From the IMG/VR virus record IMGVR_UViG_3300032167_000055: DNA of 64,000 nucleotides; one strand, written 5' to 3'. Below the pieces are notes generated by a model. That model had not been told where the DNA came from and ran no database searches. It saw only the letters and a program-made list of their open reading frames with translations. A program made the translations under genes and the position numbers. This document shows, in pieces, positions 11,398 to 29,804 of the stretch (its first letter is position 1; every line of letters begins with the position of its first letter). Source of the stretch: an uncultured virus (IMG/VR IMGVR_UViG_3300032167_000055) (taxonomy: Duplodnaviria; Heunggongvirae; Uroviricota; Caudoviricetes).

Positions 11398-14300
11398 TTA
11401 CCATGGAAATGATCCTCCAGAATCACTGGAACCACCAAGACCATTCATATCATCGAAAAATCCCATATCATATCCACCATCATCTTCTTCAAACGTAGTG
11501 TATTTATTATCAGAATCAAGACCTTCTGGTATATAGTTAAGTGAACTATTAACCAATCTTGATGTTTCTGCTTGAGATCTTTCTATAGCGTTTCGTAATA
11601 TAGCCTCATAATCTAATGCTTTCATGGCTTCTCTTTCTTCCATGATTGCTTGAGCAACATCTGTAGGTAAAACTTTATTAAGCTCGGATTCGGTTTTCTC
11701 ATAGATGCCTTGATTACGAGGTTTTTCTTCTCTTTCACCAGGATAATAACCAAATATCTGTAAGTTATTACCATGATATAAAACATACATTGCGATTAAG
11801 TAAGACATTACAGAGTCATCGTGAACATATTTTTCGTTAATCTATACATCTCTGTATAGGTCAGACTATATCTTCATCTTATATTCTGTTACCAAATATA
11901 AGATGCCTCCAATTTCGGATTTCTCCTACTCTACTCGCTTCTTCACTATAGTATTTCTCTATAGTTATGCTTTCGATAGTCGTTGAACCTTACTTATTAT
12001 TTATAATAATAAGTCTTGGCTGCTGATTGTCTCTATTCATCAGATTGTCACACTTTACTGTACTGATGACCTAACGAGAGTTCCCAGCAATTAAAGAGGT
12101 TTAACCAGACCTCCACTATTCTATTCAAATTCTACAAATTTTTTGCCTTTTTCAAACTTTGATTTTAAATGTTTGACATTACTACGAATTTTTTCGTCAT
12201 ATTCCCATCCCATTTCATTTATAACCTCTCGTACTGAAAATCCTTGTTTAAAAAGATTTTCTATTTTAACGAGTTCATTATATGAAAAAATTGCAGAAGC
12301 TTTTTTAGTCTTTTTAAATTTATAGTTTTTACTAAGTTCTTTCCAAGTTTCTCTTTTACGAATACGTAATACAAAATCATACCCTAAATTATAATCATTA
12401 GATATTTTTTTAGGTGATATCCCTTTTGATAATAATTCACAAACCAATGTAGCCTCTTCTATTGTATGAGTTGTTAAATTACATTTTTCAGATGAAACAC
12501 TTGTTGGTTTCTTTAAACCAGTTCTAAAAGCATGGTAATTATTATACGAATATGTACACCAAACAAGATTAGAAATGTCATTATTTAATTTATCACCATC
12601 TTCATGATTTATAACTGGAAGATTTTCTGGATTAGGAATAAATCCTTTTCCAACTAATCTATGAATTAATTGTGTTTTGTATTCACCTGCTTTACCTAAC
12701 TGAAGATTTACGACTTTATATCCTGTATCTTTTGATATATATCCTTTAAGTTCTTTTTCTGTAAATATATTAAATATTCGACTATCCTCAGTTATTAAAT
12801 ATTTAGTTTGAATTTTATATATTTCATCATTATATTTAATATCAATAGTGATATTTTTCCCAATTATTCCATTTGATAAAGTTATAAGTTTTTTAAATTC
12901 AATTCCTTCTCTATTATCTTCTATTTCTTTTATTATTGGCAAAATAAATGCACCTCAATTCATTAATAATTAATGATATGTTGATGCATTATAAATGTAG
13001 AATTCATAGCGATTTTCGAGCCTGGACCAGCTGCAATCTTTCCTGATGATGTACGTACTAATCGAGATATATCTGTAATAACGTTCTCTGCAATAAAATC
13101 ATCTTTATTTTCAGAAATACGTCTAGCCAGAATAGCAAACATTGCTTCTCTAGAATGACCTTCTGTGTATACACCATAGAAAGATTTTTGTGCTGCTTGT
13201 TTTTTAAGCATTGACTCTATTGTCTCATATTCTTTTTTGTTTTCTTCAGTAAGATCTTTTGCTCTATCATAATATAATCTAGATGCAATTCTTGACTGAA
13301 GTAAATGGTCGATAATACCATCACCTACACTATTTCGTTCTACACAAACGATAGCTTTAGGTACATGGCGTGTTACTAATTCAATAATAATCTGTTCATA
13401 CAACGTTTCACCAACATAAGAACAAGCAAATTCAAATGCAGGTCTAGTTGTATATGGATTAATACCAGTAATAGCATTATTATCCTTATTTGTACCTGTT
13501 GAACAGTCAACACCGACAATGTAAGGAATAGAAGGATCTAATTCTTCATAAATCATAAACTGGTAGTAATCTTTTACAAATAAAACATCGATTGGTTTAT
13601 GCATATTCTCGACGATATACTCAATATCTTCCTGAGGATAAGGAGAAAGTGATGAACCATGTAATCTCTGAAGTAGGATTTCTCGACGAACAACAAGTGC
13701 ATCACCGATCATATTACTCATCTTAGATAACCATTCTTCATCCAAACCAATCTGATAATACTGGAACTCAATATAAATAATGCGGTTAGATTCACCAGCT
13801 TTAGCAAATTCTTTCATTTCATCTTTAGTCATATCGTATAAACGCTCTGACCACTTAACGGTCTTATCAAGAATTATTTGAGCTGAAATACCAGCATTAC
13901 TATCAAGATCTCCTGGGGTACCATATTTTGTTAAAAATATTAGACTATATCTTCAATATTAATTCTGTTACCAAATTAATATTGCCTCCTATTTCGGATT
14001 TCTCCTACTCTACTCGCTTCTTCACTATAGTATTTCTCTATAGTTATGCTTTCGATAGTCGTTGAACGTTATATAATCGTAAAGTTAAAATTTTCAAACA
14101 TATAATATTTTAGTGTAAATAATAAAAACAGTCCGGTTCATAAGGAGTTATTATTTACCCTAATCTTGTATAGTGTAATATAAAAGGGATTACACACTGT
14201 ATCAACACGAACCGGTATACAAGAATCGCAGGCCTAGGGGCGTAACGTCTAGGCTAACCACCATACGGCAGTATTGGTTGGGACGTGGTGATTATGAGGC

Positions 14301-15425
14301 TGCTCCAAACAAAACCTATGTAGAATCAAAAGCCAAGTGGAACTAGCCACTCCACAGCACTTAAACAGACGGGTGACAGTGCAAGCCCGAGCAGCCCTTG
14401 CATAGGAAAAAATAAGAGCAATCTTATTTTTTTATTTTTACGATTATATCTTCGCTGCGGATTGATTCTATTCTTTACCTTTTTACTATACCTTTGGAGT
14501 TACCCATTGCCACTAAGTATATTACTATCTTAGTTTAGTAGTAAAGACATAACGAATTCGTTCCCGCAATTAAAGAGGTTTTACTTACGCGTAAAATCCA
14601 CGTAAAGATTCTTCCGTATAATGATCCATTCATTTCTGCAGCACGTGCAGCTGTTTCATAAGTTGATACAGAGTTTTCCACAATTTCTTTTATAAAGTCA
14701 GTAAACTCTGGCTCATCATAATGAATAATAGCAGCAGATAAACCTCGAGCAAGTGAAATAGCTTTCGCTTTAGAAGCAGCACCTGCACGAACAGAAATTC
14801 TGTTCTTAGTTACAGGATGCCTCATTTCTGTAGCGTTTTTAATAGCTTTCACAGTTTTACCATTTTCATCATCAAAGAATGATTCAAATCGCAAATACTC
14901 AGGTAATAAATCTATCTGTGTCTTAATACGTGCTAAGTTTTCCTTTGCGTCGGGTTGTTGTTTATTAACAAAAATAAATGATGTATTTGTAGTACCAAAT
15001 GAATACCCCCAAGCCTGAATAGCAAGTGCAGATTGCGTTTTACCTTGCTGACGAGGTAAACAAAGCCATGAATCTATTCCGTGTAAGAATAAAAATGCTT
15101 GTGCTATATTTCCTCGATTTGCTTTATAAGGAATTCCCTTAGGATTACCAGGATCAGGTATTCTACATACTTCTCTTAGATAATACCATGGATTTCTTCT
15201 ACATTCAGTAACTACTCGTACAATCTCATCTTTTGTTAATGTACAAACACCATTTTCATCGCATTTATAAGGATCTATAGTTAAAACTACAGGATCATAT
15301 ACTTCAAGCATGAAATAGTAGTTCTTAACACCTAATTGCTTTAAGTCAGTAGCTAACTGAAGAAAAGACACATTAGATGTTCCTATATCATAAAGGCGTC
15401 CATTATATTTTTTCAATCGTCCCAT
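11398..15425 (-). CDS. terL: Terminase large subunit, three exons (15425-14600, 13921-13019, 11825-11398; 718 aa spliced)
   Basis: Walker A 'LPRQQGKT', Walker B 'IIHYDEPEF', spliced 'IFTCTPGD', nuclease 'IVGVDCSTG', 'VERNSVG' and spliced 'GPGFHDDSVMS'; exon lengths 826+903+428 keep the frame. Confidence 0.88.
11826..13018 (-). mobile_element. Group I intron 2 in terL, carrying an HNH ORF
   Basis: Core motifs AATTGCTGGGAAC, AATCAGCAGCCAAG, GTTCAACGACTATCG and GAAGATATAGTCT; 5' exon ends in U, intron ends in G; splicing restores GPGFHDD. Confidence 0.88.
12121..12942 (-). CDS. Intron-encoded HNH homing endonuclease
   Basis: 'IHRLVGKGFIPNPENLPVINHEDGDKLNNDISNLVWCTYSYNNYH' HNH motif. Confidence 0.9.
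   Translation of the reverse strand: MPIIKEIEDNREGIEFKKLITLSNGIIGKNITIDIKYNDEIYKIQTKYLITEDSRIFNIFTEKELKGYISKDTGYKVVNLQLGKAGEYKTQLIHRLVGKGFIPNPENLPVINHEDGDKLNNDISNLVWCTYSYNNYHAFRTGLKKPTSVSSEKCNLTTHTIEEATLVCELLSKGISPKKISNDYNLGYDFVLRIRKRETWKELSKNYKFKKTKKASAIFSYNELVKIENLFKQGFSVREVINEMGWEYDEKIRSNVKHLKSKFEKGKKFVEFE
13922..14599 (-). mobile_element. Group I intron 1 in terL (no endonuclease ORF)
   Basis: Core motifs AATTGCGGGAAC, AATCCGCAGCGAAG, GTTCAACGACTATCG and GAAGATATAGTCT; ACGT| and G|GTACC junctions give T-C-T-P-G; 3' half nearly identical to intron 2. Confidence 0.88.
14130..14436 (+). ncRNA. Candidate structured RNA antisense within terL intron 1
   Basis: Upstream promoter-like motif (about 14078-14116) also seen at about 15875 and 29266; GC-rich stems, two crossing-helix pseudoknot patterns, terminal hairpin plus U-run. 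Confidence 0.55.
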
Positions 15426-15873: not shown

Positions 15874-16085
15874 CCGTAAAGTCGGAATTTATAAACATAT
15901 AATATTTATGTGAAATAAAGGAAATGATGATAATAAAAATCGTCTATCCTTATAAAAACTTCATAGCGCTATAGCACATATTCATAGTGATCTATAGGCA
16001 GACACAACTAAATAGCGCTCACAATAAAGTGAGGCAATTAAATTAATTTTATGGTGGAGGCGAAAGCCAAGAGCCGGAGGTTTAT
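15872..16085 (+). promoter_or_regulatory. Conserved promoter plus 5' leader, copy A
   Basis: Blocks AACCGTAAAGTC, AAACATATAATATTT, CATAGCGCTATAGCA, TGATCTATAGGCA, AACTAAATA and ATGGTGGAGG...CCAAGAGCCGGAGGT are shared with 29263-29420. Confidence 0.7.
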
Positions 16086-16523
16086 ATGAAGAAAACTAAT
16101 ACAATCGCAACTATCAGCAAGAAAGCAAACGCAGGTTTCGATAAGATGACTAAGGCAGCTGGAATGAATTACTTCGAGAGAAGAAAGTTCAAGAAGACCT
16201 GTAAGAACTTCGGTTATGACGTGGGTGTCAACGTGGCAAGTACATTGGTACTTGATACTGTTGGACTTATTGCTCATGGTACCGGTGTAGCAGTAGGAAC
16301 TGCATACCTTGGTGTTAAGAAAGGTATTAGTAAGATCAGTAATGCAGTATCTGATAAGGCTGAAGATATTAAGGCTCAGCACGAAATTAAGAAAGCTGAA
16401 AAAGCTGCTAAGAAGCATATGGAAGCTGAAGTATCTCAGAAGATCGAAGAGATCGCTGAAGAAGTTGCAGAAGCTTTTGAAGAAGAAGCTGATGCAGATG
16501 AAGAGGTAGCAACTGAAGACTAA
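16086..16523 (+). CDS. Hypothetical protein with a hydrophobic segment and acidic tail
   Basis: 145-aa ORF with GGAGGT RBS. Confidence 0.75.
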   Translation: MKKTNTIATISKKANAGFDKMTKAAGMNYFERRKFKKTCKNFGYDVGVNVASTLVLDTVGLIAHGTGVAVGTAYLGVKKGISKISNAVSDKAEDIKAQHEIKKAEKAAKKHMEAEVSQKIEEIAEEVAEAFEEEADADEEVATED

Positions 16524-24949: not shown

Positions 24950-27900
24950 ATGGCTAAAGAAAAATATAACTTACGAGAAGCTTTACTTAAAAGCGATGAA
25001 TTATTTAGAGGTGATCGATCTATCGAAGGTAAGGGTATGCTTACGATGCCTCAGTACAACAACAGTATGCGAAGTGTTATGTTCGCATCTCATTTAAACC
25101 AATATAAAAATCAGTTATACCCTGATTTCCCACAGTTCTTTACAGGTGGCGAAAATGTTGTAGGAAAGTATTCTGATGGTTATAAGAAATTAAATGAGTC
25201 CGTTGTTTATCGTAAAATTGTAAAATTTGAAGGACTTGTTGAACACCCTACAGTGTTTAAGATCTTTTTATATAATAAAACTAAAAAGATGTTTGAAGTA
25301 ATTGAACGTAAACCAGATGAAGATTTGGTAGAAGTATTTGGTTACAGATACAACACTGATGTTATTGACTCTTTTGAAGAGGGTCAAGAAATTGATGAAG
25401 GTACTATTGCATACAGATCTACTTCATATGATGAACACATGAATTATTCATATGGAAAAGACGTTCTTACTATGTATTCTTTAGAACCTTTCACATCTGA
25501 AGATGCAGCAATTGTTTCTGATGAACTTGCTAAGAAAATGGTAGCACCTGAAACAGAATATAATATTGCTACACTCAATGAAAACGATTATCCACTTAAC
25601 CTTTATGGGGATGAAACGGAATATAAAGTATTCCCTAATATTGGAGAGTTTTCTTCTGGTATTTTAATGGCAACCAGAAGAAAATTTAATAATCAGGTTT
25701 TGTTTGATTTCAAAGCAGATATGCTTGATCATGCTACTGATACCGATACTAAGTATTATTTGAACGGTAAAGTTGTTGATATTGATATTTATTGTAACAA
25801 CGAAGAATTACCTGACAATTCATTCTATCATCAGATATATACATATTGGTGTTATCAGAATGCATATTACAGACAAATCAAACAGACATGTGAAGAGATA
25901 TTCGCAACAGGTGAAAAATATTCTAATGATGTGGATTATGCGTATAAAAGAGCATGTGAAATGCTTGACTTAGAGAAGAAGTGGAAAGAAAAAGATTCTG
26001 CTTTCTCTAATGTACAGATTCATATTTTGGTTGAAAGAGAAGTAGGATTAACTGTCGGACAAAAAGTTTCAGGTCGTTATGGAAACAAATCTGTTATAGC
26101 TTCTATTAGACCAAAAGAAGAAATGCCGTATTACTATGACGCTGATGGAAATAAAGTATATGTTGAAATGATCTTTAATATGCTTGCGATTATTAACAGA
26201 ACAACAGCCGGACCAATCATGGAACTGGCAACTAACTTTATTGGTAAGAGGGTTAGTGAGACAATGCGTCATATGAAAACGATGAAGGAAAAAGATAAGT
26301 TACTTTTCGATGTTATTAATATATTTAACCCGGATGAGTATATTTATCTTAAGAATATTTACAAAGGACTTGATACTGAAGGTAAGAAAACATTCCTTAA
26401 GTATTGTGAGGAAAAGAAGATTCACTTTAATCAACCTTCAATGTCAGAAAGTAGTCCAATATTCTATCGTATTATGGAACTTAAGAATAAATATGAGAAT
26501 ATCTTAAAACCGGATAAGATGTATATTCAGAAATTCGGAAGAGAAATTCCTTGTATTCAGGATTCTTATATTGCGAATATGTACACAATTATGCTTAAAC
26601 AAACAGCAAAGAAAGGTTTCTCCGTACGAGGAATTGGTGCTGTTAGTAGTAAGGGTGTACCTGAAAGAAGCTATAAATCCAAATCTCATAAAGATTTATA
26701 CTCTTCAACTGCAATTCGTTTTGGTGAATTTGAGACGCTTAAAATTAGGCGCAGTGCGTAGTAATATGTACTGAAAACCTCTTTAATTGCTGGGAACTCT
26801 CGTGAGAGACAATCAGCAGCGAAACTTATGATGATATATTATTCTCTTGATATATAAATAAAGGAGATTGATATATGTATAACGATATTGATGAAATATG
26901 GAAACCTATTATAATTAATGACGAAGAAACAAAATACCTAGTGTCTAATCTAGGACGAATTTATAGTACTAAAAATAATATGATTTTAAAACCACTTCCA
27001 ACAAACAACGGATACCTTCGAGTATGTATTTACTTGAAAAATGGAAAATCTGTATATAAATCTATTCATAGGTTGGTTGCAATTGCGTTTATTCCAAATG
27101 ATGATCAATTGCCAGTTGTTAATCATAAAGACGGAGATAAACATAATAACTATGTCGATAACTTAGAATGGCTTACATATTCAGAAAATAATATTCATGC
27201 ATTCGAAACAGGATTGAACACATATAGATATGGCGATAATTCACACTTCGCTAAATATTCTAAAGATCAAGTGATTGAATCGTGTGAACTTATGGAAAGT
27301 GGTATGTTTACAATAAAAGAAATTGAATTGATGACTGGTATAGATGGTGCTATGTTATATATGATTAAAAATCGATTATCATGGATTAATATATCAATAT
27401 TTTATGATGTTGAAAATTGTAAACAAACGAAATCAGAATATTCTGAAGAACAAATAGAAAATGTCTTTAAACTACTATCAGAAAACAAATTATCTGTATA
27501 TGAAATCATGGATATTACTAATGTGAAGACGTCTACTATCTATAATATTCTCATTCATAGATACGATAAATTTAAATATCTATATGAGTTTTATGATGTT
27601 GATAAATACACATCGAGTGATAAGAAATTACCAGATATTGATATTGATGTACAGAATGAAGTATTTGGTTATATTAGAAATAATAAATCTACGAAAGATA
27701 TTATCAATATAATTCATTCTAAATACAATATAAATTCTGATCGAATTCGTCATTTTATTAATCGTTATAAACATAAGAACGTTCAACGACTATCGAAAGG
27801 GTAACTTAAGAGAAAGACTTAAGTGAGTAACTGAGTAGAGTAGGAAGTAATTCCGAAATGGGAGGCAACCAATAATTGGTAATAGATTATTGGTTGAAGA

Positions 27901-28494
27901 TATAGTCTGATCTTTATAGTGATATAAAGTTAACACACATGTAATTTCACCGTTGCGATGATGCCGGAAGAAGTAGCACTTATTCATGCTTTATATAGAA
28001 CTTCTGTTAAAGCAAGAAGAGATTTAGGTAAAGCTTTACTTGATAATGAACCTGTAATTACAGTAAGTAAATCATATGATTCACGTGTTGCAGAGTTCTT
28101 TGAAATTATCCTAAAATCATTAGGATTTTCAATTGAGTTCTTAGATGGTGATGATGATCTTAAAGAACTTAATACTACAGATATGGAGTGGTTCGAACTT
28201 ACTAATGGAAAGAGTTTATTCTGTAGTGAATATGATAAATTCATTATTGACAGACGTCAGGAAATTGCAGATGAACTTCTTGAAGAATTTGGTGCTTTAA
28301 ACATTGACGAACTTAATGAAATGATCGATGAAGAAATTGAAGCACGTCAATATTTCATTGGTAGTTATGATGGAACCAAAGATTTCTATTTGAACTGTGT
28401 AGAGGGAACTAATATTAGAAGAGAAGTAAAATCTAACGAAGAGATTACTGCTAATATTGGTGAACTTATGGATGTAGAAGTTCCGTTAGAATAA
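24950..28494 (+). CDS. Phage RNA polymerase beta-like subunit (probably non-virion), two exons (24950-26739, 27942-28494; 780 aa)
   Basis: 'SEDAAIVS', 'GQKVSGRYGNKSVI', 'IINRT', 'MLKQ', spliced 'IRFGEFETLNF'. Confidence 0.85.
26740..27941 (+). mobile_element. Group I intron in the RNAP beta gene, carrying an HNH ORF
   Basis: P1 CGCU-U/AGGCG with U-G at the splice site; core AATTGCTGGGAAC, AATCAGCAGCG, GTTCAACGACTATCG, GAAGATATAGTCT; terminal G at 27941. Confidence 0.88.
26875..27804 (+). CDS. Intron-encoded NUMOD4/HNH homing endonuclease
   Basis: 'EIWKPI...YLVSNLGRI' (NUMOD4), 'IHRLVAIAFIPN...VNHKDGDKHNNYVDNLEW'. Confidence 0.9.
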   Translation: MYNDIDEIWKPIIINDEETKYLVSNLGRIYSTKNNMILKPLPTNNGYLRVCIYLKNGKSVYKSIHRLVAIAFIPNDDQLPVVNHKDGDKHNNYVDNLEWLTYSENNIHAFETGLNTYRYGDNSHFAKYSKDQVIESCELMESGMFTIKEIELMTGIDGAMLYMIKNRLSWINISIFYDVENCKQTKSEYSEEQIENVFKLLSENKLSVYEIMDITNVKTSTIYNILIHRYDKFKYLYEFYDVDKYTSSDKKLPDIDIDVQNEVFGYIRNNKSTKDIINIIHSKYNINSDRIRHFINRYKHKNVQRLSKG

Positions 28495-29262: not shown

Positions 29263-29420
29263 AACCGTAAAGTCAGCATTTTCAAACATATAATATTTTT
29301 GTGAATAAAAAATAAATTACATAGCGCTATAGCATGAAACGTAATGATCTATAGGCAAATATAACTAAATATAAAATTAAATATGGTGGAGGATAAAATA
29401 TCCAAGAGCCGGAGGTACTT
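29263..29420 (+). promoter_or_regulatory. Conserved promoter plus 5' leader, copy B
   Basis: Shares ordered sequence blocks with 15872-16085. Confidence 0.7.
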
Positions 29421-29804
29421 ATGAGTAAAGAGATTAAGAAGTTTAGTAGTATTGAAGAATTGAATGGTTTCATTTCTGATGGTAAGATTATTTATAGTCT
29501 TGCAAATAGTGGTAATATCTGGTTTGTAGAGTGTGAAACTAATTCTATAAATACCCGTACTACTGTTAGTGTACCTGATGAATTTGAAGAACTTATTGAA
29601 AAGGCTATTCGACTTGGTTATATCGAAGTAAGTGAGTTTGCAGGTAGCAAACAGTTTAGAGTAAACTACTGTAAAAATTGTTGTTCATTGGCTCTTGGTC
29701 ATTCTGATGTTATAAAGAAACAAATGATAGAATTTTGTTACAAATATGAGACAGGAATGACGACAAGACGTGAGCTTGAGGAATATGTAGAGCTTAAAAA
29801 ATAA
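29421..29804 (+). CDS. Hypothetical protein
   Basis: 127-aa ORF with GGAGGT RBS. Confidence 0.7.
   Translation: MSKEIKKFSSIEELNGFISDGKIIYSLANSGNIWFVECETNSINTRTTVSVPDEFEELIEKAIRLGYIEVSEFAGSKQFRVNYCKNCCSLALGHSDVIKKQMIEFCYKYETGMTTRRELEEYVELKK

Follow-up and report, generated by a model that had tools for sequence, protein, structure and literature searches.

What does a group I intron carry in a peripheral loop in which no long open reading frame (ORF) can be found? The question is raised by positions 14071-14449 of a 64,000-nucleotide stretch of DNA from an uncultured virus of the Caudoviricetes (IMG/VR record IMGVR_UViG_3300032167_000055), hereafter called the window, where an intron interrupts the gene for the terminase large subunit (TerL). 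This segment is probably the P6a stem-loop of a working intron, and its loop would carry an entire gene with transcription signals of its own, for a structured non-coding RNA (ncRNA) of ~326 nucleotides on the plus strand, antisense to terminase. The RNA encoded by this cargo appears to be a new family, absent from Rfam. Two diverged homologues, one on a contig from a metagenome-assembled genome (MAG; L085) and one in a related phage (G002), seem to settle both the fold and the independence of the gene. What is reported below on anatomy and homology, on covariation and the strand on which wobble pairs fall, on conservation and on the lack of a coding signal was read from the sequence and its comparison with relatives.

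The two terminase pieces appear on the minus strand as ORFs 14535-15425 and 12963-13832, and exon 2 is 66-76% identical to the TerL proteins of relatives. We chose the splice sites of this intron (intron 1) to place a U before the 5′ site and a G before the 3′ site and to give the best restoration of the relatives' protein. Exon 1 then ends at 14600 (U on the minus strand), the last intron base is G13922, and exon 2 starts at 13921. The joined exons read ...GRIFTCTPGDLDS..., in agreement across the junction with the intron-less relative L014, and both L014 and L015 have a terminase gene that is uninterrupted at this site. Removal of the intron is thus predicted to restore the reading frame at a position that is uninterrupted in relatives, as is expected of group I splice sites.

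Without the P6a cargo, intron 1 is reduced to a 5′ half of 150 nucleotides (14599-14450) and a 3′ half of 149 nucleotides (14070-13922). The 5′ half is 72.8% identical to DNA of the staphylococcal phage K-type polA intron, and the 3′ half is ~76% identical (blastn) to the corresponding part of an insert-less intron at the same site in relative L012. With the cargo in place, the Rfam model Intron_gpI (RF00028) matches only 13922-14033, and weakly (15.6 bits, E 0.29, cut-off 50), likely because the core is split by 379 nucleotides; the L012 intron scores 79.8 bits. In the closest relatives (L009-L013, 83% identical), the introns at this site are 277-308 nucleotides long and have a short P6a hairpin instead of the cargo.

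The arms of the stem noted in the preliminary description of this locus, ATATAATCGTAAA (14071-14083) and TTTACGATTATAT (14437-14449), are perfectly complementary (13/13). The stem is now identified as P6a of intron 13922-14599: alignment to the Rfam-annotated L012 intron puts the arms between ...CCGCAGCGAAG (P4/P6) and AACGUUCAACGACUA (P6/J6-7). All 13 aligned arm pairs are kept in L085, one of them by a double change, and an extra base in each arm makes a 14-bp stem there. The same description had compared the loop with that of an intron in the RNA polymerase (RNAP) gene, said to hold an ORF for an HNH protein in the equivalent position. This comparison holds because the intron in the RNAP beta-subunit gene of the same genome (gene 24950-26761, phrog_3295; intron ~26760-27930, plus strand) has a P6 loop that contains an early-type promoter and, in the sense direction, an HNH ORF (26875-27804).

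Between the P6a arms, no ORF of at least 30 amino acids that starts with ATG, GTG or TTG is present on the plus strand, and the minus strand has only ORFs of 31-33 amino acids, in keeping with the earlier statement that the loop has no long ORF. The longest stop-to-stop frames wholly inside the cargo measure 55-60 amino acids, and listed frames of 57 and 69 amino acids run past the 3′ arm into the intron core. Eight of the 17 listed stop-to-stop frames (at least 20 amino acids, overlapping the loop) were compared with Pfam and PHROGs, and none matched a family at E<=1. Thus, alignment to a decayed endonuclease gene, which the preliminary description had named as a possible refutation, yielded no similarity in these eight frames. 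The GC content of the cargo is 39%, compared with 32% for the window. A small ORF behind an AAGGAG at 14143 was also considered and was rejected since no start codon lies downstream.

Searches for known RNAs were likewise negative. None of the 4227 models of Rfam 15 matches the cargo on either strand at its gathering threshold, and matches within 14084-14436 at E<=10 are noise only (RAGATH-8, 9.8 bits; MIR408, 15.7 bits). ARAGORN reports no tRNA or tmRNA gene in the whole window, and a second copy of the cargo was not found in the phage genome.

A candidate early-type promoter lies at the beginning of the plus-strand unit. The consensus for early promoters of the virion RNAP of phage AR9 is AAATATATATTAT-(6N)-G+1 (PMC5312081). 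The cargo promoter appears to be of this type, with an A/T-rich 13-mer, a 6-nucleotide spacer and a G at +1, and the 13-nucleotide core, the spacer and the G at the predicted start are kept in both L085 and G002. The related motif ATATA[AT]TAT-6N-G occurs 27 times in the genome, and 18 of these copies are followed within 120 nucleotides by a Shine-Dalgarno (SD) sequence, a start codon and an ORF of at least 50 amino acids, a situation found at 7.75% of random positions (n=2000). None of the 11 copies in reverse orientation precedes a gene. The cargo motif (14078-14126) recurs at 15875 and 29266, as had been noticed earlier, and once outside the window. It belongs to a subtype of this directional, genome-wide motif, which lies just upstream of ribosome-binding sites and start codons; the upstream block CGTAAAGT is the trait of the subtype and is found in only four copies. 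No terminal inverted repeats were found at the other promoter copies.

The unit ends with a hairpin that resembles an intrinsic terminator. Its stem has 11-12 bp in the window and 13 bp in each of the two homologues (L085 and G002), and the arm sequences differ among the copies, each of which is followed by a run of U nucleotides. A scan with a terminator consensus that needs three G-C pairs did not list the cargo hairpin.

Between these signals, the RNA is predicted to form two pseudoknots (PK1 and PK2) and a series of hairpins (Table 1). All coordinates in the preliminary description proved right, including those of four crossing helices and two hairpins; an 11-bp hairpin at 14115-14158 was missing from its list and is not conserved in L085. 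PK1 and PK2 are alike in topology, in that their 3′ strands are contiguous (0-2 nucleotides apart), and an A-rich linker, CAAACAAAA (14306-14314), joins the 5′ strands of PK2 helices A and B. The region 14084-14436 contains five perfect helices of at least 8 bp, compared with 0.92 +/- 0.96 in 300 dinucleotide shuffles, none of which reaches five.

This fold is supported by nucleotide covariation. In the alignment of the window with L085, nine helices comprise 65 pairs, and 130 of 130 cells hold standard pairs. Fifteen pairs are changed at both positions (PK1 helix A 1, H3 3, H4 2, H5 7, H7 2), including C14139-G14209 of PK1 helix A, which is G-C in L085. When partners are slid by 1-3 columns, only 0-2 double changes and 30-39% pairing are obtained, and none of 500 shuffles reaches the observed values. 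Helices H2, PK2 helix A, PK2 helix B and H8 do not vary between these two copies, and H2 consequently offers no covariation test. The G002 copy adds six double changes, for a total of 21 across the three copies: PK2 helix A has 8/8 pairs with one G-C replaced by A-U, PK2 helix B has 8/8 pairs of which four are double-changed, all Watson-Crick, and H8 has 5/5 pairs with one G-C replaced by C-G. Thus, both of the pseudoknots proposed earlier carry compensatory changes (PK1 helix A 1, PK2 helix A 1, PK2 helix B 4). Base pairs preserved by compensatory change in diverged homologues are characteristic of a structured RNA family, and the cargo RNA, with three lineages, appears to belong to one.

The same helices indicate which strand folds. 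In those with support, G·U pairs occupy five positions on the plus strand, two of which are Watson-Crick in the other copy, and no A·C combination (a G·U on the minus strand) is present. In H4, two G·U pairs of the window are A-U and G-C in L085. The promoter and the U-run share this plus-strand orientation in all three copies.

Three candidate helices were rejected because they are not preserved in L085. These are H1 as a conserved helix, the pairing of TAACCACC with GGTGATTA (14255-14262/14287-14294), which would favour the minus strand, and a long-range CACUGU/ACAGUG pairing (14195/14376). G002 has a 13-bp hairpin of its own that begins at +1.

Homologues were uncommon. Six IMG/VR contigs are 100% identical to the window unit and add no information. 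A gapped pattern based on the PK2 strands, applied to GTDB genomes, recovered L085, a single contig of 80.7 kb in a Lachnospiraceae MAG (G006), which is 72.8% identical to window positions 13939-14464 over 541 nucleotides. Its cargo is again antisense and in a P6a loop, in this case of an intron in a phage RNAP beta gene rather than terminase, and it shares with the window the P6a arms, the promoter module with G at +1, the core and the terminator hairpin. Pieces of this intron family match G006 at least 23 times, with the matches distributed over three contigs (C66, C100 and C129), and we therefore regard it as containing a jumbo phage that was binned into the MAG. Assignment to this Lachnospiraceae bin is only a hint as to the host. 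With this many intron matches, the binned phage has an unusually intron-rich genome.

We built a covariance model on the RNA core (R1) and a second model (R2). R1 scores 332.8 bits for the window, 348.3 bits for L085 and 45 bits for a third copy (E 4e-11), which it located in G002, a related phage of 249.6 kb whose TerL is 73% identical. This copy is free-standing, located between ORFs and on their strand, with no intron and nothing relevant reported by Rfam nearby. It has a consensus early promoter (AATGATATATTAT-6N-G), a PK2 domain, and a hairpin with an A-rich arm followed by a U-run. Domain 1, H4, H5 and H7 are not recognisable in G002, where a longer insert takes the position of H7, and the common core is therefore the PK2 domain plus H8. 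None of five flanking proteins matches between the G002 locus and G000.

Other searches yielded no further representative. INPHARED phages (blastn) match the 5′ half of the intron only and not the loop, and BLAST of the cargo against five related jumbo-phage records found no copy. Exact and gapped patterns in IMG/VR returned, among the matches listed, only the six identical contigs, G002 and chance hits (in one scan, 80 of 111 loci were scored), and one scan of JGI metagenome data, with an 18-mer that was later seen to be non-conserved, gave four chance hits. R1 and R2 found no copy in ten related records (G001, G003-G005, G007-G012; best E 0.44), among them the complete genomes G001 and G004, and R2 had no hits in 150 further genomes of the MAG's family. 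From this pattern we infer that the cargo is an accessory gene with a patchy distribution among related phages.

The RNA seems to be under strong constraint. The PK2 domain is 89% identical between the window and L085, compared with 62% and 44% for the intron halves, and other intron copies in G006 match the 3′ half of the window intron better (up to 86%) than the cargo-bearing copy does. The cassette and its P6a arms therefore seem to have moved between intron backbones. The earlier proposal of an independent ncRNA gene within the intron loop, antisense to terminase, thus gains support from the G002 copy, the 21 double changes, the plus-strand G·U pairs, and the retention of the promoter and the terminator-like hairpin; the search of Rfam and the collection of homologues that it had suggested gave no family match and a supported fold, respectively.

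The unit, or a variant of it, is represented in three metatranscriptome runs. Record 2 of run X22 is 209 nucleotides long and covers 14182-14390. Record 19 of run X24 (284 nucleotides) covers 14158-14407 plus 38 unlike letters upstream, and so corresponds to ~14120-14407; its ends fall close to the predicted start and to the terminator, and thereby hint weakly at a transcript. In one X23 contig, 14071 and 14449 are separated by just 13 other letters; this contig is a related intron with a short P6a hairpin. Among the differences listed, variants in these runs change mostly in loops and linkers, including a 3-nucleotide deletion in the H3 loop of one variant, which we offer as illustration only. 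Long, A/T-rich loose ends beside 14070 in these runs suggest other cargo in related introns.

Several observations weigh against an independent, trans-acting RNA gene. The RNA-library data are contigs that reveal neither strand nor true ends, in which the uncovered parts carry no meaning, and such libraries can contain DNA or excised intron. Record 10 of run X23 (14291-14477, depth 101) continues past the terminator and reaches the intron core, as would be equally expected of intron RNA, DNA or read-through. The hairpins at the terminator are weak, with energies of -9.8 to -12.6 kcal/mol, and rich in A and U. The cargo core ATATAATAT deviates from the commonest form of the motif, ATATATTAT, and the AR9 enzyme is described as sensitive to some promoter deviations (PMC5312081). 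Single-sequence folding gives a mild advantage over shuffles (z -2.59 for the plus strand and -1.28 for the minus strand), and the folding energies of the whole insert are alike on the two strands (-85.2 and -86.8 kcal/mol, respectively). PK1 rests on one covarying pair from two sequences because H2 and most of PK1 never vary. Finally, the family is known from only three lineages, and the trans-acting, protein-binding function of the RNA is pure inference.

The main rival is a riboswitch-like or protein-responsive leader, an explanation that we consider possible but doubtful. The pseudoknotted core would be the sensor, the abutting hairpin and U-run the expression platform, and read-through the output, producing in the window and in G006 an antisense RNA over the 5′ splice site and exon 1, and in G002 expression of a radical-SAM gene downstream. 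Such an arrangement would account for the terminator hairpin that directly follows the 3′ strand of PK2 helix B in all three copies, for the same-strand ORF that lies ~75 nucleotides past the U-run in G002 with no promoter motif seen between, and for the X23 record that crosses the terminator. Conserved unpaired nucleotides (the A-rich linker, UAACAGAC and the H8 loop) surrounded by variable peripheral stems also resemble an aptamer. However, inspection by eye revealed no anti-terminator pairing, neither strand matches an Rfam riboswitch, and two of the three copies have no sense gene downstream; the 5′ hairpin, the terminator and a length of ~300 nucleotides fit a stand-alone RNA equally. The near-invariant unpaired blocks and the two pseudoknots could instead belong to a catalytic or guide RNA through which the cassette promotes its own spread. 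Such an RNA might be a ribozyme that cleaves itself, or it might direct a nuclease to cut alleles that lack the cargo. The cargo does stand in the place of a mobility gene, and the cassettes of the window and G006 are more alike than their intron backbones. We nevertheless judge this option improbable, since no Rfam ribozyme or omega-RNA model matches and no guide-like complementarity to an exon junction exists, the best being 10 nucleotides in the window with none at the G006 counterpart.

A cis-antisense regulator, in which the early plus-strand RNA would anneal to the intron loop in the late pre-mRNA of terminase or RNAP and thereby change its splicing or stability, would be perfectly complementary to the intron loop by construction and would explain an early promoter inside a late-type gene, an arrangement with precedent in AR9, in which the intron of a late gene harbours an early gene together with its early promoter (PMC5312081). 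We find this unlikely given that the G002 copy has no antisense partner, that the host genes differ (terminase in the window, RNAP beta in G006), that plain pairing needs neither compensatory changes nor conserved loops, and that a cut within the loop would leave the intron halves joined by the P6a stem. A peripheral intron domain on the minus strand, acting as a folded P6 extension that aids or regulates splicing, is very improbable and largely refuted by G002, whose homologue is outside any intron. It would be in accord with the P6a location in two phages, with helices on both strands at the similar energies given above, and with one RNA contig that is continuous with the intron core. Against it, the closest relatives have a short P6a hairpin, an insert-less form is present in run X23, the five G·U positions would become A·C mismatches if the minus strand were the one to fold, and the conserved promoter and U-run point the opposite way. 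Lastly, the cargo occupies the slot of homing-endonuclease gene (HEG) ORFs and its promoter module is copied elsewhere in the genome, as might be expected for a decayed HEG or an inert recombination scar with a leftover promoter. We give this idea almost no credence; it is refuted by covariation (the 21 compensatory changes) and by a 3′ domain that is 89% identical where the intron halves are 44-62% identical, and it is disfavoured by the lack of protein-family similarity in the scanned frames and by a GC content above that of the genome.

If the segment is indeed an independent RNA gene, the injected virion RNAP would begin to transcribe it at G14115 only minutes after infection. The hairpins at its 5′ and 3′ ends may stabilise the product, which might then act in trans, most likely by binding a protein as a decoy or scaffold. 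The intron loop could be a safe site, since splicing would remove the cargo and leave the host gene unharmed. The two intron halves are kept together by the 13-bp P6a stem. Conserved intron core sequences flanking P6 may serve as homology arms for movement of the cassette between intron copies. Patchy, accessory spread is usual for genes of counter-defence and competition, and intron-borne HNH enzymes of jumbo phages have been reported to act in phage-against-phage competition.

A more speculative extension, which we hold only tentatively and think rather unlikely as a whole, is an RNA-only cassette of mobile introns, consisting of an early promoter, a double-pseudoknot RNA and a terminator, that replaces the homing-endonuclease gene, moves between the P6 loops of the numerous introns in these phages, and also exists free-living. 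Its PK2 core would be a sensor or catalytic centre, perhaps one that answers a small molecule or host defence signal early in infection or that serves phage-phage competition.

Loops of phage group I introns are known homes of endonuclease genes, which have promoters of their own and are looped out of P6/P6a; T4 td/I-TevI is a familiar example, and the RNAP-beta intron of the present genome is another. The cargo resembles such systems in its location in the P6/P6a terminal loop, in having an early promoter inside the intron, in being apparently dispensable for splicing, and in varying between close relatives. It differs in that the cargo is an ncRNA in reversed orientation with its own terminator-like hairpin in the loop, and no endonuclease is encoded. 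Twin-ribozyme nuclear group I introns carry the GIR1 lariat-capping ribozyme and a HEG in a peripheral loop, and thus also have a folded, pseudoknotted RNA cargo in such a loop. However, GIR1 is a eukaryotic element on the intron's strand that descends from a group I core and acts for the mRNA of the HEG, and no Rfam GIR1 match was obtained here. In Clostridioides difficile, a cyclic di-GMP-II (c-di-GMP-II) riboswitch adjoins a group I ribozyme, and its same-strand aptamer steers splice-site choice. That system likewise couples a pseudoknotted sensor RNA to a group I intron in a Clostridia context, whereas the RNA described here is antisense and has no Rfam match to c-di-GMP-II.

Two further systems are worth comparing. 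IStrons are described as group I introns joined to insertion sequence elements with TnpB and a guide (omega) RNA (PMC10690162). They too link a group I intron to a structured ncRNA in Clostridia-associated mobile DNA, whereas the phage studied here has no TnpB-type domain, and its cargo RNA shows no guide complementarity and is on the opposite strand and in P6a rather than at the element end. In AR9, the intron of late gene g189 holds early gene g190 and its early promoter (PMC5312081). The early promoters of that phage share with ours a 13-nucleotide A/T core, a 6-nucleotide spacer and a G start, which are present in all three RNA genes, as well as a location before genes in one orientation. 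They differ in that the window core is ATATAATAT and not ATATATTAT, in the extra upstream CGTAAAGT, and in that the start sites given here are predictions. Full-text searches of main texts, including that of PMC10914365, found no report of an ncRNA gene nested antisense in a group I intron loop.

Intron loops, then, can seemingly carry RNA genes, and ORF-less loops are not necessarily junk for annotators to pass over. The family would be a new structured one, with two pseudoknots supported by covariation, and is predicted to be transcribed by the injected polymerase during the first minutes after a Clostridia-type gut host is infected. Patchy spread together with strong constraint points to an accessory role, such as host takeover, defence evasion or competition.

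Table 1. Features of the terminase locus, the P6a cargo and the predicted RNA in the window
Feature	Position	Strand	Details
Terminase large subunit exon 1	14600..15425	-	phrog_32359, E 3.9e-43; junction by exon joining
Terminase large subunit exon 2	12963..13921	-	phrog_2, E 1.5e-4
Group I intron 1 of terminase gene	13922..14599	-	678 nucleotides
P6a stem and 353-nucleotide loop (cargo)	14071..14449	-	arms 14071-14083 and 14437-14449
Early-type promoter (predicted)	14078..14114	+	upstream block CGTAAAGT 14078-14085; core AAACATATAATAT 14096-14108; 6-nucleotide spacer; predicted start G14115
Predicted RNA gene	14115..14440	+	~326 nucleotides, predicted +1 to end of U-run; from promoter and terminator
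H1, 5′ hairpin at +1	14115..14158	+	14115-14125 / 14148-14158; 11 bp, perfect in window
PK1 helix A	14133..14215	+	14133-14139 / 14209-14215; crosses H2; 7/7 pairs in window and L085
H2 (PK1 helix B)	14164..14224	+	14164-14172 / 14216-14224; 9/9 pairs; invariant between window and L085
H3 hairpin	14173..14195	+	14173-14179 / 14189-14195; 7/7 pairs in both copies; 3 double changes, one U-A to U·G
H4 hairpin	14231..14255	+	14231-14238 / 14248-14255; 8/8 pairs; 2 double changes; loop with conserved GCGUAA
H5 hairpin	14258..14281	+	14258-14266 / 14271-14281; two bulges; conserved GGCA loop; 9/9 pairs in both copies; 7 double changes
PK2 helix A	14298..14396	+	14298-14305 / 14389-14396; 8/8 pairs; invariant in L085
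PK2 helix B	14315..14406	+	14315-14322 / 14399-14406; crosses helix A; 8/8 pairs including one U·G; invariant in L085
H7 hairpin	14337..14355	+	14337-14341 / 14351-14355; 9-nucleotide conserved loop ACUAGCCAC; 5/5 pairs; 2 double changes in L085
H8 hairpin	14370..14389	+	14370-14374 / 14385-14389; conserved loop; 5/5 pairs including a U·G in all three copies
Terminator-like hairpin and U-run	14407..14440	+	arms 14407-14417 / 14422-14432; 5′ arm A-rich

The window corresponds to bases 119027-183026, read on the reverse strand, of a virus record of 278,849 bp; the record is complete according to CheckV, and the source genome is that of a ~279-kb gut jumbo phage; the samples of the record are of faecal and bovine-gut type. 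Four bases (29189, 29195, 29215 and 29216), just upstream of the promoter copy at 29266, differ between the window and the genome record, which are otherwise identical.

Two known classes of ncRNA were considered as identities for the cargo and rejected. An omega or guide RNA was set aside as the phage has no TnpB-type domain (PF07282) and no guide match, although no search was aimed at IscB-type proteins. A retron-type ncRNA was set aside as no reverse transcriptase (PF00078) is present in the phage genome. A 10-nucleotide stretch of the RNA's variable linker (14197-14206) is the reverse complement of exon 1 positions 14662-14671, ~70 nucleotides upstream of the 5′ splice site; chance alone would produce ~0.2 matches of this kind.

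Among relatives (loci L003-L026), the terminase gene is a hot spot for introns, with sites at approximately residues 126-128, 237 and 275-288, and the number of introns ranges from none (L014, L015) to three (L024). In the window, a second terminase intron (11842-12942, minus strand) sits between exon 2 and a C-terminal exon at 11398-11808. Its Intron_gpI core (11842-12119, 82.2 bits) has an HNH ORF (12121-12942; phrog_59, E 8.6e-38) directly on its 5′ side, and the version of this intron in relatives is without the ORF.

Three early-type promoters precede a long conserved 5′ leader, found at 15897-16085 and 29288-29420 on the plus strand and, outside the window, on the genome minus strand near 75146. 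The leader contains CATAGCGCTATAGCA, GATCTATAGGCA, ATGGTGGAGG and CCAAGAGCCGGAGGT, and in the window it precedes ORFs 16086-16523 and 29421-29804, both without a PHROG match. This leader may be a cis-regulatory RNA.

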